Shown here piece by piece: positions 4,223-31,227 of a stretch of 32,000 nt of DNA; position 1 is the stretch's first letter; each line of letters opens with the position of its first letter. The translations under genes were made by a program, and so were the position numbers. The stretch spans positions 30,001 to 62,000 of the forward strand of contig JAIPHU010000002.1 of NCBI GenBank assembly GCA_021735045.1, written 5' to 3'. This DNA comes from Candidatus Omnitrophota bacterium. GTDB taxonomy: Bacteria; Omnitrophota; Gorgyraeia; Duberdicusellales; 4484-171. A model generated the notes under the pieces. The model saw only the letters and a list, made by a program, of their open reading frames with translations. It did no database searches and was not told the origin of the DNA.

Positions 4223-4247
4223 AAAAAGAATAATTTAATAAATTCGG

Positions 4248-4276
4248 CCCCGAAATCGTTTGGTTTCGGGGTTTTT
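4248..4276 (+). terminator. intrinsic terminator after the ferredoxin gene
   Basis: CCCCGAAA (4248..4255) pairs with TTTCGGGG (4264..4271), followed by TTTTT (4272..4276). Confidence 0.8.
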
Positions 4277-4282
4277 AATATC

Positions 4283-4311
4283 TTGCATGCTTATTTATTT
4301 TAAGATACAAT
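4283..4311 (+). promoter_or_regulatory. sigma70-like promoter for the response regulator / histidine kinase operon
   Basis: TTGCAT (4283..4288), 17 nt spacer, TACAAT (4306..4311). The predicted transcription start (TSS) near 4318 falls at the start of the octamer repeat. Confidence 0.55.
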
Positions 4312-4313
4312 TT

Positions 4314-4390
4314 AATTAACCAATTAACCAATTAACCAATTAACCAATTAACCAATTAACCAATTAACCAATTAACCAATTAACCAATTA
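4314..4390 (+). repeat. perfect tandem octamer repeat (AATTAACC) x9.6, G-free on the + strand, ending directly at ATG 4391
   Basis: Read directly: 9 complete AATTAACC units (4314..4385) plus AATTA (4386..4390). No mismatches and no SD. Confidence 0.97.
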
Positions 4391-5104
4391 ATGCCTTACT
4401 CAATCCTTTTAGTTGATGATGACAAAGTATTTCAGCAAGAATTCATAGCTTCTTTCGATGATTATTCAATCGTTCCTGCCTGTTCAGGAGAAGAAGCGCT
4501 AAAGATATTAAGCAAACCGCATGAAATCGATTTGGTTTTACTGGATGTGATGCTGCCTGGCCAACGGGGGACTAAAATCCTAAAAAAGTTAAAAAAAACC
4601 AAACCAGAGTTGAAAGTAATAATTTTAACTGGTTACAGCAACAAAGATATTGCCATTGAGGCCTTAAAGGCTGATGCTGATGATTATCTGGAAAAGCCCC
4701 TTGATTTAGAAAAGGCAGCGGCTATCTTTGAACAATACTTAAAGTATGGAACCAAAAGGAGTAATTTAGGCGCAAGTAGTATTGAAGAAAAAATTGCCAG
4801 GGTAAAAGAGTATATCCAGCGCAACTACCATACCCAAGTTTCTTTAAATGATGCTGCAAAAATAGTTTTTTTAAGCCCGAAATACTTAAGCCGGGTTTTT
4901 GCAAAGGTAACCGGTCAAGGGTTTAATCAATTTAAGCTTTCTTGTAAGATTGACAAAGCCAAAGAGCTGCTTCAGAAAAGTTCCTTAACTATTGAACAGA
5001 TTTCTTATCAATTAGGTTATCAAAATATCGAATCTTTTGTCCGGATTTTTAAAAAGTTTACTGGTAAAAGACCGACTCAATTTCGTAAAAAAAAGAAAAA
5101 ATGA
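4391..5104 (+). CDS. two-component response regulator, receiver domain plus AraC-type HTH output
   Basis: Receiver motifs LLVDDD, DLVLLDVMLPG and ILTGY are present. The C-terminal AraC HTH reads IEQISYQLGYQNIESFVRIFKKFTGKRPTQFR. Confidence 0.88.
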   Translation: MPYSILLVDDDKVFQQEFIASFDDYSIVPACSGEEALKILSKPHEIDLVLLDVMLPGQRGTKILKKLKKTKPELKVIILTGYSNKDIAIEALKADADDYLEKPLDLEKAAAIFEQYLKYGTKRSNLGASSIEEKIARVKEYIQRNYHTQVSLNDAAKIVFLSPKYLSRVFAKVTGQGFNQFKLSCKIDKAKELLQKSSLTIEQISYQLGYQNIESFVRIFKKFTGKRPTQFRKKKKK

Positions 5105-6621
5105 AACAAAATTTAATTTTATCTCAGTGTCGGCTTGCTAAATTAATTGATGAGCCAGTGATCACCTGTGATTTAGATAATAAAATTTTGCTTTGGAATC
5201 AGGGAGCCGAGAAAAAATACGGTTGGACAAAAGAAGAAGCACTAAATAAAGATGAAAATCAACTGCTAAAAACAAAAGCCAATCAAGATTTTCGCCAAAT
5301 TAAAAAAGAAATTAAAAAGAAGGGGAAATGGGAAGGTGAGTTAGTTCAGGAAAAAAGTGATGGTAGAAAAATTATTGCCTGGAGCAAATGGGTTTATGAT
5401 CGAGATCAAGCCGGAAATCCGATCGCAATAATTAAAATTAACAATGAAATCACTCACCAAAAAAGAATGGAAAGTGCCCTAGAGAACGCTTATCAGGAAT
5501 CAGAAAAAACTGCAATTAAACGTACGATAGAGCTGCAAGAAGCAAATGAACTTTTGGCCCGAATATTTTCGTCAACTTATGTTCTTTTTGCTTATCTGGA
5601 TATCAACTTTAATTTTATCACTGTGAATAAAGCTTATGCTGATGCAGAAGGAAAATCGATCGATTATTTTCCCGGCAAAAATCATTTCGATCTTTATCCT
5701 AATCAAGAAAATTTAGAAATATTTAAAAAAGTGCTGGCAACCGGAAAAACCTATCTTTGTTACGAAAAACCCTTTATTTATCCAGATCAGCCGCAAAAAG
5801 TCACTTATTGGGACTGGACTCTGGAGCCGATTAAAGATCCTTTTGGCGAGGTGGAAGGGTTACTTTTATGTTTAGTAGATGTAACCGAAAGAAAACTGCA
5901 ACAAAAAGAACTGATTGAGACCGAGAAAGAATTGTCTGGTGCTCAGCGTTTATCCAGTCTAGGAACATTGTCGGCAAGTATCGCTCATCAATTGCGCACT
6001 CCTTTAGCGGTGATTAAAATGGCTACCTTTAATATTAAAAGAAAAAGCAAGAATCCCGAAATTGCAAAACATATTGAAAATATTGAGAAAAAAATATCAG
6101 AAAGCAGCCATACGATCACCAACCTCTTAGCTTATTCTCGCCTGAAGCAACCGGATTTTGAAGAAGTTTATCTGGATCAGTTGTTGACTGATTGCATCAA
6201 AACTCACCAAAAACTATTTTCGAAAAAAAAGATTAGAATCAAAAGAGATTTAAAAAGTTTAAAAAAAGTTTTATTTAAATTAGATTCCTATCAAGCCCAA
6301 GAAATTTTTAATAATATTCTCACCAATGCTTGTCAAGCTTCGGCTGAAAAGAGCACGGTTGAAGTCAAAGCCGAAAAAGGAAGCGACTTTAAATTTTTAA
6401 TTAAAATTTCCGACCAAGGTTTGGGGATTAATAAAGAAAATATAAAAAGAATCTTTGAGCCGTTTTTCTCCCGCAAAAAAACAGGCACCGGCCTCGGTTT
6501 AAGTTTGGTTAAAGAGTTAGTGGACCTAAATCGGGGAAAAATCAATATAGAGAGCAAAGAAGGAAGAGGAACCACAGTTACTCTAGAATTTTCCGCCGAA
6601 AGCATACCTGCCCGTACTTAA
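5101..6621 (+). CDS. PAS-domain sensor histidine kinase
   Basis: Two PAS-like regions are present, with H-box SIAHQLRTPL, N-box NNILTNACQA, and G-boxes DQGLGI and GTGLGLSLV. Its start overlaps the response regulator stop (ATGA). Confidence 0.88.
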   Translation: MKQNLILSQCRLAKLIDEPVITCDLDNKILLWNQGAEKKYGWTKEEALNKDENQLLKTKANQDFRQIKKEIKKKGKWEGELVQEKSDGRKIIAWSKWVYDRDQAGNPIAIIKINNEITHQKRMESALENAYQESEKTAIKRTIELQEANELLARIFSSTYVLFAYLDINFNFITVNKAYADAEGKSIDYFPGKNHFDLYPNQENLEIFKKVLATGKTYLCYEKPFIYPDQPQKVTYWDWTLEPIKDPFGEVEGLLLCLVDVTERKLQQKELIETEKELSGAQRLSSLGTLSASIAHQLRTPLAVIKMATFNIKRKSKNPEIAKHIENIEKKISESSHTITNLLAYSRLKQPDFEEVYLDQLLTDCIKTHQKLFSKKKIRIKRDLKSLKKVLFKLDSYQAQEIFNNILTNACQASAEKSTVEVKAEKGSDFKFLIKISDQGLGINKENIKRIFEPFFSRKKTGTGLGLSLVKELVDLNRGKINIESKEGRGTTVTLEFSAESIPART

Positions 6622-18339: not shown

Positions 18340-18780
18340 ATGGCTATTGAATTATTTAAAAATTTATTTGGGAAAACTAAAAAAACTGCTAAAAAAGCAA
18401 CAGTAAAAAAGAAAGTTAAAAAGAAAAAGTCTGCAAAAAAGAAAGTTAAAAAGAAAAAGTCTGCAAAAAAGAAAACAACTCCGAAAAAAAAGAAGAAAAA
18501 AGCAACTAAAAAGAAAAGCATTAAAAAAGCCCAAGAAAAAGAAATAGGCGTAGTTACTCATTATTTTGGAAAGATTTCAGTAGGTATTATTAAGTTAAAA
18601 AGCAGTTTGAGCCTTGGAGATAAAATAAAAATAAAAGGTGCTCACGTTGATTTTAACCAATCAATCAAATCGATGCAAATAAACCATAAGGATGTAGCTT
18701 CTGCGCGAAAAGGGGCTGAGGTGGGTGTTAAAGTAAAAAAGCGCGTTCATCCTAAAGATAAGGTATATAGGAAAATCTAA
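18340..18780 (+). CDS. lysine-rich N-terminal tail fused to an EF-Tu domain-2-like beta-barrel (translation elongation factor-like protein family)
   Basis: About 60 aa of K-rich low complexity is followed by IGVVTHYFGKISVGIIKLKSSLSLGDKIKIKG...MQINHKDVASARKGAEVGVKV. That segment resembles the small stand-alone EF-Tu domain II-like proteins. Confidence 0.6.
   Translation: MAIELFKNLFGKTKKTAKKATVKKKVKKKKSAKKKVKKKKSAKKKTTPKKKKKKATKKKSIKKAQEKEIGVVTHYFGKISVGIIKLKSSLSLGDKIKIKGAHVDFNQSIKSMQINHKDVASARKGAEVGVKVKKRVHPKDKVYRKI
18411..18470 (+). repeat. perfect 30-bp tandem duplication inside the lysine-rich region (encodes KKVKKKKSAK twice)
   Basis: 18411..18440 is identical to 18441..18470 (GAAAGTTAAAAAGAAAAAGTCTGCAAAAAA). 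Confidence 0.95.
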
Positions 18781-28061: not shown

Positions 28062-28088
28062 TTAGCACTCTTGGCTTGGGAGTGCTAA
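28062..28088. promoter_or_regulatory. CIRCE operator (HrcA binding site) upstream of hsp20
   Basis: TTAGCACTC-N9-GAGTGCTAA is a perfect match to the CIRCE consensus. It lies 22 nt upstream of ATG 28110. Confidence 0.95.
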
Positions 28089-28560: not shown

Positions 28561-28589
28561 TTTGCACTCCCAAGCCTAAGGTGTTATTT
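28561..28589. promoter_or_regulatory. degenerate, inverted copy of the upstream CIRCE (including its spacer), overlapping a candidate clpB promoter
   Basis: GCACTCCCAAGCC (28564..28576) is the exact reverse complement of GGCTTGGGAGTGC (28073..28085). The right arm has decayed (AAGGTGTTA). The candidate promoter is TTGCAC (28562..28567), 17 nt spacer, TATTTT (28585..28590). Confidence 0.55.
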
Positions 28590-28594
28590 TGTTA

Positions 28595-28617
28595 CCAATT
28601 AACCAATTAACCAAATT
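28595..28617 (+). repeat. short version of the CCAATTAA octamer repeat (2 perfect units plus CCAAATT), directly abutting the clpB ATG
   Basis: CCAATTAA CCAATTAA CCAAATT, then ATG 28618. The sequence is G-free and there is no SD. Confidence 0.9.
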
Positions 28618-31227
28618 ATGAATTTAGAAAAATTTACCATTAAAGCTCAAGAAGTAATAGTTGCGGCATTAGAGGTGGCGCGTAAATTTAAGCACCAAGC
28701 TTTAATTCCCGAGCATATTCTTTATTCTTTGCTTAAAGACAAAAAAAATATTGCTTATAAGATTTTGGCTAAGCTGGGGGTAAATCCAGATGATGTTTTA
28801 AAAACAGCCCAAGATCATCTTTCTTCACTGCAAAAAGTTTTAGGGCAATCAGATCAAGTTTATGCCTCTCAAGCTACTGCACAGCTGTTAAGCCAAGCAA
28901 AAGAAGTTGCTAGTAAGTGGGGTGATCAATATGTAAGTTCAGAGTTGTTGCTTTACCTTCTTGGGGTTGATAAGAACTCATTGCTAGCCAATTACCTCAC
29001 TAAACAAGGGGTTAATTCTAAGGATATAGTCCGAGTTATAAAAGAAGTTCGCGGAACTCATAAAGTAGATACTCAGGCTGCTGAAAGTACTTACCAAGCT
29101 CTGGAAAAATTTGGCCGTGATTTAACTGAGATGGCAAAGAAAGGAAAACTGGATCCGGTGATTGGTCGAGACAATGAGATCAGACGGTTAATGCAGGTTT
29201 TATCACGCCGCACCAAAAATAATCCGGTTTTAATCGGTGATCCGGGGGTGGGGAAAACAGCAATTGCCGAAGGCCTAGCCCAGCGGATTGCTCAGCAGGA
29301 TGTACCTGAGGGTTTAAAAAATAAAAGAATAATTGCTCTTGACTTAGGGTTGATGGTTGCGGGAGCAAAATTTCGTGGTGAATTTGAACAACGGCTAAAA
29401 GGGGTTCTCAAAGAGATTGAAGCAAAACAAGGTGAAATTATTCTTTTTATTGACGAACTACATACAGTAGTTGGGGCTGGTTCGGCTGAAGGAGCAGTGG
29501 ATGCTGCAAACATGTTAAAACCAGCTTTAGCCCGAGGTACTTTACGTTGTATTGGCGCAACTACTTTAGATGAATACAGAAAACATATTGAAAAAGATGC
29601 GGCTCTGGAGCGAAGATTTCAGCAAATAATTGTTGAAGAGCCAACAGCTGAACAAACTATTGCAATTTTACGGGGATTAAAAGAAAAATATGAAGTGCAT
29701 CATGGAGTGAGATTGAAAGACTCTGCTTTAATTGCGGCAGCTATGCTTTCAGACCGTTATATAACGGGAAGATTTTTGCCGGATAAGGCAGTGGATTTAA
29801 TTGATGAAGCTGCATCCCACTTGCGGATTGAAATTGACAGTAAGCCGGAAGAGATTGATCGGCTGGAGAGAAAGATCTTAGAACTTCAAATTCAAAGACA
29901 GGCTTTAAAGAAGGAAAAAAGCAAACAAACTGAAAAGGAACTTAATCAAGTGGAGAAACAGATTAAAAGCTTAGAAAAAGAGTTGGATTTAAAGAAAAAA
30001 CATTGGGAAAAAGAAAAAGAGATCATTACTCAAATCCGCAACAAGAAAGAAGAGATCGATAAATTAAAAAATCAAACAGTTGAATTAGAAAAGGAGGGTA
30101 AATTAGATAAAGTCGCTGAAATTAGATATGGAAGAATTCCAGAACTTTCTGCTCAAGTCGAAGATTTTAACAAAAAGTTAATTAAATTACAAAAAAATGA
30201 AAAGATGTTAAAAGAAGAGGTTGATCAAGAAGATATTGCTCAGATTGTATCCCGTTGGACCCATATTCCAGTTTCTCGTTTGATGGAAGAAGAAGTTAAA
30301 AAATTGCTCCATATGGAAGAGGAGATTGAAAAAAGAGTAGTGGGTCAAAATCAGGCGGTAACTTTGATATCTGATTGTGTGCGCCGGGCTCGTTCTGGCC
30401 TAGCAGATCCCAACAAACCATTAGGCTCGTTTATTTTTGCCGGGCCAACCGGTGTAGGTAAGACCGAACTGGCGAAGGCTTTAGCGGAGTTTTTATTTGA
30501 TACAGAAGATGCATTGATTACCTTAGATATGAGTGAATATATGGAGAAGTTTGCGGTTTCTCGTTTGGTGGGAGCTCCTCCTGGTTATGTCGGCTACCAA
30601 CAAGGGGGACAGTTAACCGAGAAAGTAAGAAGACAACCTTATTCGGTAATATTATTTGACGAGATAGAAAAAGCCCATCCGGATGTATTTAACATTCTTT
30701 TACAAATTTTAGATGAAGGCCGGCTTACTGATTCACAAGGCCGAATTGTAAACTTTAAAAATACTTTAATTATCATGACTTCTAACGTTGGAAATCAGTT
30801 CTTTAACGATCCTCAAGTAAAAAAAGAGATAATTGAAAGAAACTTAAGACAGGAGTTAAAGAAACACTTTCGCCCGGAACTGTTAAACCGCCTAGATAGT
30901 ATTGTTGTTTTTAACAGCCTTGAGCTCTCTGAGATCAAAAAAATAGTAGATATTCAAATGCAAACCATCAAGAAGAGATTGGCAGATAAAAATATAAAGG
31001 TCGAGCTCACACCTCTAGTCCGTGATTTTTTGGCAGAAAGAGGATTTTCGCCTGAATATGGTGCAAGGCCCTTGAAACGGGTAATTCAGCGGTTGGTAGT
31101 TAATCCTTTAAGCGTTGATTTGATAAAGGGGAGATTTATGCCAGGAGATAAAATAAAGGTTAAAAAGGAAGATAAGCAGATATTTTTTGTAAAACTAAAA
31201 CAAGATAAAAAAAAGGAGGATAAGTGA
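28618..31227 (+). CDS. clpB: ATP-dependent chaperone/disaggregase ClpB
   Basis: A Clp N-domain, two AAA+ modules (GDPGVGKTA and GPTGVGKTE Walker A) and a long coiled-coil M-domain between them are present. The protein is 869 aa. Confidence 0.95.

Follow-up and report, generated by a model that had tools for sequence, protein, structure and literature searches.

How does a ribosome find the start codon of a gene whose whole predicted leader consists of one short repeat without a single G? This question is raised by a 32,000-nucleotide stretch of a Candidatus Omnitrophota genome (contig JAIPHU010000002.1, positions 30,001 to 62,000; hereafter the window, whose own numbering is used throughout). 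Nine perfect AATTAACC units occupy 4314..4385, are followed by AATTA at 4386..4390 and run into the ATG at 4391 of a response regulator gene (RR). An earlier note on this DNA had described the arrangement, and both the sequence and Tandem Repeats Finder confirm it, the latter reporting a tract at 4314..4391 with a period of 8, 9.8 copies, 100% matches and a score of 156. The two-unit 16-mer matched the window 10 times against 0.11 matches expected, and no shuffle reached 10; all ten matches fall at only two sites, namely this tract and a shorter copy at 28594..28614 in front of clpB. We propose that the tract is an octanucleotide microsatellite prone to slippage and that it acts as a leader of variable length which has no structure and does not depend on a Shine-Dalgarno (SD) sequence, a reading that we hold to be probable, if only just.

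The position of the repeat relative to the signals of transcription was examined at the RR locus. The upstream ferredoxin gene ends in an intrinsic terminator at 4246..4278 (forward strand, like the promoters, arrays and genes of the window described below), which was found by a terminator scan, has a 12-bp G+C stem (4246..4273) followed by a T run and is kept in five lineages. This strong terminator isolates the regulator operon transcriptionally, and the operon therefore needs a promoter of its own within the 35 nucleotides (nt) before the repeat. Directly 5' of the repeat lies a candidate promoter at 4283..4311, with TTGCAT at 4283..4288, a 17-nt spacer and TACAAT at 4306..4311, the hexamers and the coordinates being those given in the earlier note. 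Its -35 hexamer matches TTGACA at only three of six positions, and a consensus scan therefore did not list it; we regard it as a promoter because it is conserved in orthologous loci, with ATCTTGC and TAnnAT at the same place in contigs L119, L128, L129 and L244, and because of the terminator just upstream. The order is terminator, promoter, array and ATG, with nothing but the array between the -10 box and the ATG, and the conservation of the terminator and of the TTGC..(17)..TAnnAT promoter in five lineages places the repeat in the transcript. The transcription start site is predicted near 4318, within the first repeat unit, and (AATTAACC)x9 plus AATTA (4314..4390) would form the whole 5' untranslated region (UTR). 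A promoter inside the repeat that gives rise to a leaderless mRNA was considered and rejected, as the unit has no TAnnnT hexamer; moreover, the -10 box at RR ends 79 nt before the ATG, which is not the geometry of a leaderless mRNA.

The start codon itself is well defined. RR (4391..5104) encodes 237 amino acids with a REC domain, which begins at residue 5, and an AraC-type helix-turn-helix domain (HTH_18; Pfam), and its product is identical to MCF7873357.1 and MCF7894355.1 of Candidatus Omnitrophota metagenome-assembled genomes. The homologues P0001-P0007 all begin MPY[ST]ILLVDDD, and MPYSILLVDDD opens every close homologue, which fixes ATG 4391 as the true start. A downstream start with an SD of its own, which the earlier note had named as a way in which its interpretation could fail, was not found at this gene, where the next Met would remove the acidic pocket of the conserved REC N-terminus. 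RR and the following gene for a PAS histidine kinase (5101..6621), whose start overlaps the RR stop in ATGA, are one operon. At this junction (5080..5104), the lysine tail of RR is encoded by an A-rich run (AAAAAAAAGAAAAA), and the relatives are 5 residues longer; the run may be a second slippage-prone tract.

We then considered what kind of RNA the repeat would yield. G is absent from the 77 nt that precede ATG 4391, as it is from the 24 nt ahead of the clpB ATG (28618). The RR leader is 75% A+T and 0% G, and a scan of the start codons of the window detected no SD-like tetramer before ATG 4391. For the sense leader together with the first 30 coding nucleotides, folding gave a minimum free energy of -2.8 kcal/mol and a centroid of 0 (fully unpaired) at a z of -0.2; the clpB leader is equally unstructured and SD-less. 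The opposite strand, (GGUUAAUU)n, can pair with itself by G·U and A-U pairing, and its predicted hairpin has -22.6 kcal/mol (z -4.2). Tetramer scan, fold and locus alignment thus agree with the earlier description of a G-free, structureless leader that has no SD and lies downstream of a promoter, and the alignment shows this promoter to be conserved. Both the unit and the RR tract lack ATG, GTG and TTG, and the unit has TAA in all three frames of both strands, so that the repeat can neither code nor hold an upstream open reading frame (ORF), and the latter candidate was rejected. Rfam 15 gave no match at the gathering score anywhere in the window, and no tRNA was found there.

Because the leader is G-free, unfoldable and SD-less, the 30S subunit must come by an SD-independent route. 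We envisage that the microsatellite, which lies between the -10 box and transcription start site and the start codon, would be transcribed as a complete 5' UTR from the conserved promoter, and that the sense RNA, composed of A, U and C only, would neither fold nor offer an SD. The 30S subunit would be recruited by accessibility, probably through binding of ribosomal protein S1 to the single-stranded A/U/C-rich leader, and the repeat would act as a single-stranded landing pad that presents the AUG. The perfect periodicity would allow replication slippage to add or remove units, with the consequence that leader length would differ among close strains. This variation may tune expression quantitatively; no on/off switch by frameshift or by promoter spacing would be involved. 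The repeat may be a translational enhancer or a length-dependent tuner.

Initiation in the organism at large provides the background for this proposal. AGGAGG-type sites stand at most genes in the window, and the two repeat leaders are clear exceptions to the SD habit of the genome. About one third of the genes lack such a site and several look leaderless, which makes non-SD initiation normal for this organism. At the starts 12274, 18340 and 23160, which have no SD, TTGCAA, TTGCAT or TTACAC is followed after a 15-16-nt spacer by TATAAA, TATCAT or TATAAT 6-8 nt before the ATG, a geometry that suggests that leaderless translation is common in this Omnitrophota genome. Without the array, 7 nt (RR) or 8 nt (clpB) would remain between -10 box and ATG, which is the spacing at these three leaderless-looking genes.

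The shorter copy of the repeat allowed a comparison with relatives in which the ancestral leader can be recognized. It consists of ACCAATTA x2.6 (28594..28614), starts 3 nt past the -10 box and ends 3 nt before the start of clpB (28618..31227; 869 amino acids, assigned by Pfam and homologues), whose product is identical to MCF7873385.1 and MCF7893864.1 of Candidatus Omnitrophota metagenome-assembled genomes. The earlier note had placed this copy in contact with the ATG; it is indeed present at the start codon, but ATT separates the two. A MerR-like gene and hsp20 lie upstream of clpB. The putative clpB promoter region, TTGCAC-17-TATTTT (28561..28590), overlaps a degenerate element (TTTGCACTC-N9-AGGTGTTAT, at 28561..28587) that resembles the controlling inverted repeat of chaperone expression (CIRCE). 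Promoter and CIRCE-like element are held within a block, TTTGCACT(C/G)(C/T)CAAGCCnAAGGTGTTAT(T/C)TT, that is common to the window and to the related contigs L139, L140, L141 and L243, whose ClpB proteins are 86-91% identical. From the -10 box to the ATG, the leader reads AAATAAAAGAGGAAAAGATTAAAGT in L139, AAATTAATGAGGGAAAAAAGAT in L140, AAATTAGATAAGGAAGGTGAAAAAT in L141, AAATTAAGAGAAAGGAGTGAAAT in L243 and GTTACCAATTAACCAATTAACCAAATT in the window. An SD (GAGG, GAGGG, AAGGAAGGTG or AAAGGAG) precedes the ATG in all four relatives where the window has the repeat, and the swap spans exactly the interval from -10 box to ATG. Since four of four relatives are SD-bearing, the repeat replaced an SD-bearing leader in the window lineage, and because it replaced the SD, initiation at clpB must be SD-independent. 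On this alignment, the replacement is the strongest indication that a repeat leader may at least be compatible with translation. The copy is neither a CIRCE/HrcA operator nor an RNA thermometer, as it has no inverted repeat and no SD-sequestering hairpin. A perfect CIRCE (TTAGCACTC-N9-GAGTGCTAA) lies at 28062..28088 upstream of hsp20. In relatives, clpB and a gene for a ribosome hibernation factor are followed by hrcA-grpE, and in L140 and L243, where hsp20 is missing, a perfect CIRCE stands directly upstream of the clpB promoter block.

At the orthologous RR loci, the synteny of ferredoxin, RR, histidine kinase and PolX genes is kept. In the alignment of five lineages, the terminator, ATCTTGC (-35) and TAnnAT (-10) are conserved and everything past the -10 box differs. 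The window lineage (RR identity 100%) carries (AATTAACC) x9.6. In the P0003 lineage (93%), the same promoter is followed by mixed AATTAACC and AATTAATC units, the latter being themselves duplicated; there are 5.6 units in six contigs (L119-L123, L127) and 8.6 in L124, two further contigs (L125, L126) begin inside the repeat, and the P0003 protein is identical in all contigs of the lineage. P0002 (94%; L128, GCA_021736105.1) has a non-repetitive, G-poor leader of 47 nt, P0005 (87%) a 307-nt intergenic region with a leader of roughly 250 nt, and P0006 (81%; L244) a leader of about 88 nt that holds another tandem repeat (ATTTGTAATTTGRA-like), all three without SD. The repeat is thus present in the 93% lineage, as the earlier note would have it for orthologous loci, but absent from the 94%, 87% and 81% lineages. 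The L244 repeat (ATTTGTAATTTGAA / ATTTGTAATTTGGA at 1410-1470) occupies the same leader position, and from this we conclude that the RR leader has repeatedly acquired tandem duplications. Taken together, the aligned loci imply that SD-less initiation is ancestral for RR and that its leader is an evolutionary hot spot, of which the octamer array is a young, lineage-specific and length-unstable version. The octamer is thus one of several interchangeable SD-less RR leaders and not a required element. A metagenome scan for the promoter-repeat junction gave 0 matches, and one with the regulator protein found only relatives at ≤41% identity.

Repeat number is polymorphic among close strains at the level of assemblies (5.6, 8.6 and 9.6 units), although the counts were taken from assemblies of short reads, in which the number of repeats may be wrong. 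This heterogeneity, together with the contigs that break inside the repeat, is what the earlier note had predicted for a contingency locus. Under a strict version of that idea, the locus would be phase-variable: unit number would set the expression of the two-component system and of clpB in the manner of hmw1A, and selection would act on a population heterogeneous in copy number. The occurrence of one unit at several loci of a genome is typical of contingency loci, and there is a precedent for a transcribed G-free simple sequence repeat (SSR) in a 5' UTR whose length is inversely related to expression (PMC12721329). This precedent, the closest case described, is the (ATCTTTC)n tract of hmw1A/hmw2A in Haemophilus influenzae, a G-free SSR in the 5' UTR with strain-variable copy number. 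The tract and a G-rich arm farther downstream make up a long hairpin that is cleaved by RNase III, so that expression falls with repeat number (PMC12721329). The author of the earlier note knew of no described bacterial leader of this kind, but the kind is not wholly unknown. Like the hmw tract, the window repeat is built of short G-free units in tandem, lies between promoter and start codon, is transcribed and varies in number. Unlike it, the window leader has no G-rich segment between repeat and ATG, no predicted structure, and runs without an SD into the AUG; the G-rich partner needed for an RNase III hairpin by the hmw mechanism is missing. In the window, the repeat precedes genes for a cytoplasmic regulator and a chaperone, not for surface antigens, and the bacterium is an environmental member of the Omnitrophota. 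The tetranucleotide contingency loci of Haemophilus and Neisseria and those with promoter-spacer repeats are likewise perfect SSRs with length polymorphism and more than one locus per genome, but the window repeat has an 8-nt unit, lies outside both the coding frame and the -35/-10 spacer, where no on/off mechanism is evident, and belongs to a host that is no host-adapted pathogen. We therefore consider a strict contingency locus unlikely.

Arrays of the same octamer also occur in other genomes. An exact scan with the 18-mer CCAATTAACCAATTAACC, using one genome per species, found at least 118 loci in other genomes (L001-L118). The figures that follow hold for the matches listed. By our own tally, about 84 are from Bacteroidota, 16 from phyla of the Planctomycetes-Verrucomicrobia-Chlamydiae group including Omnitrophota, and 5 from Ignavibacteriota; several genomes hold 5-7 loci each, and arrays are often degenerate, with AACCAATC, AACCAGTT and AACCATTT units. 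We defined as class I those arrays whose G-free strand is sense to the downstream gene, counting ATG-initiated ORFs of at least 80 codons. ORF starts lie within 30 nt of an array in 25 cases in sense and 1 in antisense orientation, and within 60 nt in 39 versus 7. Any SD-like tetramer is found in only 4 of 40 class I leaders, the last 40 nt of which have a mean of 5.9% G. This supports the view of the earlier note that the motif is no isolated slippage product, since it is found again at clpB and, with the same strand as sense, just ahead of start codons in many other genomes. The class I downstream genes include obg, nadD, ugd, purM, pyrB, metF, hisD, cheW, response regulators and others, a diversity that argues against a dedicated regulon. 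In the Omnitrophota locus L011, one array takes in the stop of the preceding gene and reaches to 6 nt from the ATG of nadD, and is thus an operon-internal SD-less junction; a second stands before obg in the order TAAAAT, CT, array, AAAGC and ATG, and here too the spacing without the array would be leaderless-like.

The distribution of arrays also bears on a rival reading, a neutral microsatellite. Here the repeat would be a by-product of slippage without a function of its own, RR would never have depended on an SD, the loss of the SD at clpB would be tolerated, and the strand bias elsewhere would reflect only purifying selection against G-rich, hairpin-forming leaders. The strong predicted hairpin of the antisense RNA could alone explain the orientation bias. 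At RR, close lineages lack the array; no two of their leaders are alike, yet none has an SD, and the different tandem repeat in the L244 leader would mark the region as simply duplication-prone. In viral contigs, moreover, the 18-mer is not enriched over control octamers. This account has difficulty with three observations, however: two start codons in a stretch of 32 kb acquired the same unit, which other genomes also carry at many loci; the frequency with which arrays stop a few nucleotides from a start codon is far above that predicted by neutrality plus strand selection; and the order of a four-helix-bundle gene (PF05635), array and ugd is retained across three flavobacterial genera. We regard neutrality as possible though not probable, and as a serious rival.

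Several findings weigh against the octamer as a functional SD-independent leader, beside the possible miscounts of its units. It is dispensable at RR, as the 94%, 87% and 81% lineages carry unrelated SD-less leaders, and 'enhancer' may therefore mean no more than 'permissive'. At clpB, the SD may have been lost in a down-mutation that was tolerated, without the repeat taking over its function. About 40% of the arrays elsewhere are not leaders but follow stop codons in the G-rich orientation. Finally, viral contigs hold 20 matches of the 18-mer versus 50, 4, 11 and 16 for composition-matched octamer repeats; we accordingly dropped the idea that the octamer is exceptionally frequent, and the unit itself may not be special.

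The arrays behind stop codons form a second class. Here an ORF of 100 codons or more runs up to the array and terminates there, with the G-rich strand as its sense strand. This class II (for example in L010, L014, L034, L036, L038, L052, L086 and L103) accounts for 56 of about 130 arrays among the matches listed, with the stop mostly at most 30 nt before the array or supplied by it. Where the G-rich array, (GGTTAATT)n, supplies the stop, proteins end in ...LIG*. The class II transcript strand is predicted to fold into a long G·U/A-U hairpin and may be a 3'-end or terminator element. That the strand depends on which end of a gene the array adjoins is in keeping with selection on RNA structure, with unstructured 5' and structured 3' regions.

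The recurrence of similar units across phyla raises the possibility that the sequence itself is recognized. An AACCAAU-type unit could be bound by a conserved partner in trans, such as an rRNA stretch, an RNA-binding protein or a small RNA, and act as a specific enhancer or target. Near-identical units (AACCAATT, AACCAATC, AACCAGTT, AACCATTT) do recur in Bacteroidota, Planctomycetota, Omnitrophota, Ignavibacteriota and others, degenerate arrays often keep an AACCAAT core, and CAAUUA is common to the unit and to the ACAAUUAC repeats of the omega leader of tobacco mosaic virus (TMV). Against this stand the control octamers, which are about as frequent in viral contigs, the many neighbouring arrays built of quite different G-poor units, and the close relatives that dispense with the unit. 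We know of no convincing complementarity between AAUUAACC and the 16S rRNA of E. coli. Specific recognition thus appears very unlikely to us.

Recognition at the level of DNA is still harder to reconcile with the data. The direct repeats adjoin the promoter of a regulator gene, and the same motif occurs at a second, stress-related gene in the window; they might bind the AraC-type regulator, which would then control itself and include clpB in its regulon, or another DNA-binding protein, and the bound protein would act as a roadblock downstream of the promoter. However, the repeat is absent upstream of the 94%-identical (L128), 87%-identical and 81%-identical regulators and from four of four clpB orthologues, a period of 8 bp does not fit the phasing of the helix, and a strong sense/antisense bias is unexpected for a DNA roadblock. 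Arrays in other phyla precede unrelated housekeeping genes with no such regulator adjacent. An operator array is therefore extremely improbable, and the earlier suggestion that unit number sets operator phasing for the AraC-type regulator is unlikely to hold.

An SD-independent leader, the reading that we prefer, has a parallel in a plant virus. The G-poor omega leader of TMV directs S1-dependent, SD-independent translation in E. coli (Tzareva et al. 1994, as cited in PMC13577412). Omega resembles the window leader in being a G-poor, unstructured, SD-less leader of short direct repeats (ACAAUUAC x3 plus a CAA tract) and in sharing the hexamer CAAUUA with it. It differs in that it is a plant-virus leader tested in a heterologous host, whereas the window leader is native to a bacterium, perfectly periodic, polymorphic in length and known from its sequence. 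Among bacteria, ribosome profiling of Flavobacterium johnsoniae by Baez et al. in 2019 reportedly revealed SD-less, A-rich and unstructured initiation regions of Bacteroidota. Most arrays elsewhere likewise lie in G-poor, SD-less leaders of Bacteroidota among the matches listed; the window organism, in contrast, uses strong SDs for most of its genes. The literature searched held no description of a tandem-octamer architecture of Bacteroidota leaders, and searches for the unit, its dimers and its arrays in bacteria returned only cloning primers and unrelated matches. The 'octanucleotide repeats' of Geobacter were considered and are unrelated to the present repeat.

The element combines known features, namely a 5'-UTR microsatellite and an SD-independent leader. 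Should it be functional, bacteria would have a native equivalent of the omega leader, in an organism that otherwise relies on strong SDs, and at clpB the repeat leader would have been caught in the act of replacing an SD. It would offer a clean natural system for studying how 30S subunits find start codons on unstructured mRNA, in which the natural alleles of 0, 2.6, 5.6, 8.6 and 9.6 units make up a ready titration series. The range of variable 5'-UTR microsatellites, which are known in host-adapted pathogens, now also includes regulator and chaperone genes of bacteria that live in the environment and are uncultured. Beyond the window, octamer arrays seem to be placed strand-specifically at the starts and ends of genes in many genomes, a placement for which we found no description in the literature searched. 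On a broader and rather doubtful hypothesis, AACCAAUU-type arrays would represent an undescribed, modular and strand-asymmetric class of RNA elements across phyla: the C-rich strand would provide omega-like, SD-independent landing pads able to take the place of an SD leader, as at clpB, and the G-rich strand hairpins behind stop codons, folded through G·U pairs, the arrays would spread to gene boundaries, sometimes with Avd-like cassettes, and slippage would tune their length.

Genes of the PF05635 family ('23S rRNA intervening sequence protein', an Avd-like four-helix bundle) adjoin arrays in 7 of the 10 cases in which they are present in the loci, namely in L006 (6100-6720), L011 (7520-7960), L037, L059, L067, L075 and L115, and some are flanked by arrays in inverted orientation. 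A Pfam check of the window detected no PF05635 gene. The three genera in which four-helix-bundle gene, array and ugd keep their order are Salinimicrobium, Salegentibacter and Gillisia, with Ugd proteins 76-87% identical. A viral contig of 14178 bp (L144, IMGVR_UViG_3300020160_001188) has the 18-mer four times close to either end, with the two sets inverted, which looks like array-based terminal inverted repeats. A tandem repeat of another kind lies in the window within the ORF at 18340..18780, one of the leaderless-looking genes: at 18392..18515 it has a lysine-rich coding repeat with a period of 30, comprising 2.3 perfect copies and degenerate AAAAAGAAA units. The 146-amino-acid product has no Pfam match and is possibly a histone-H1-like or nucleoid protein.

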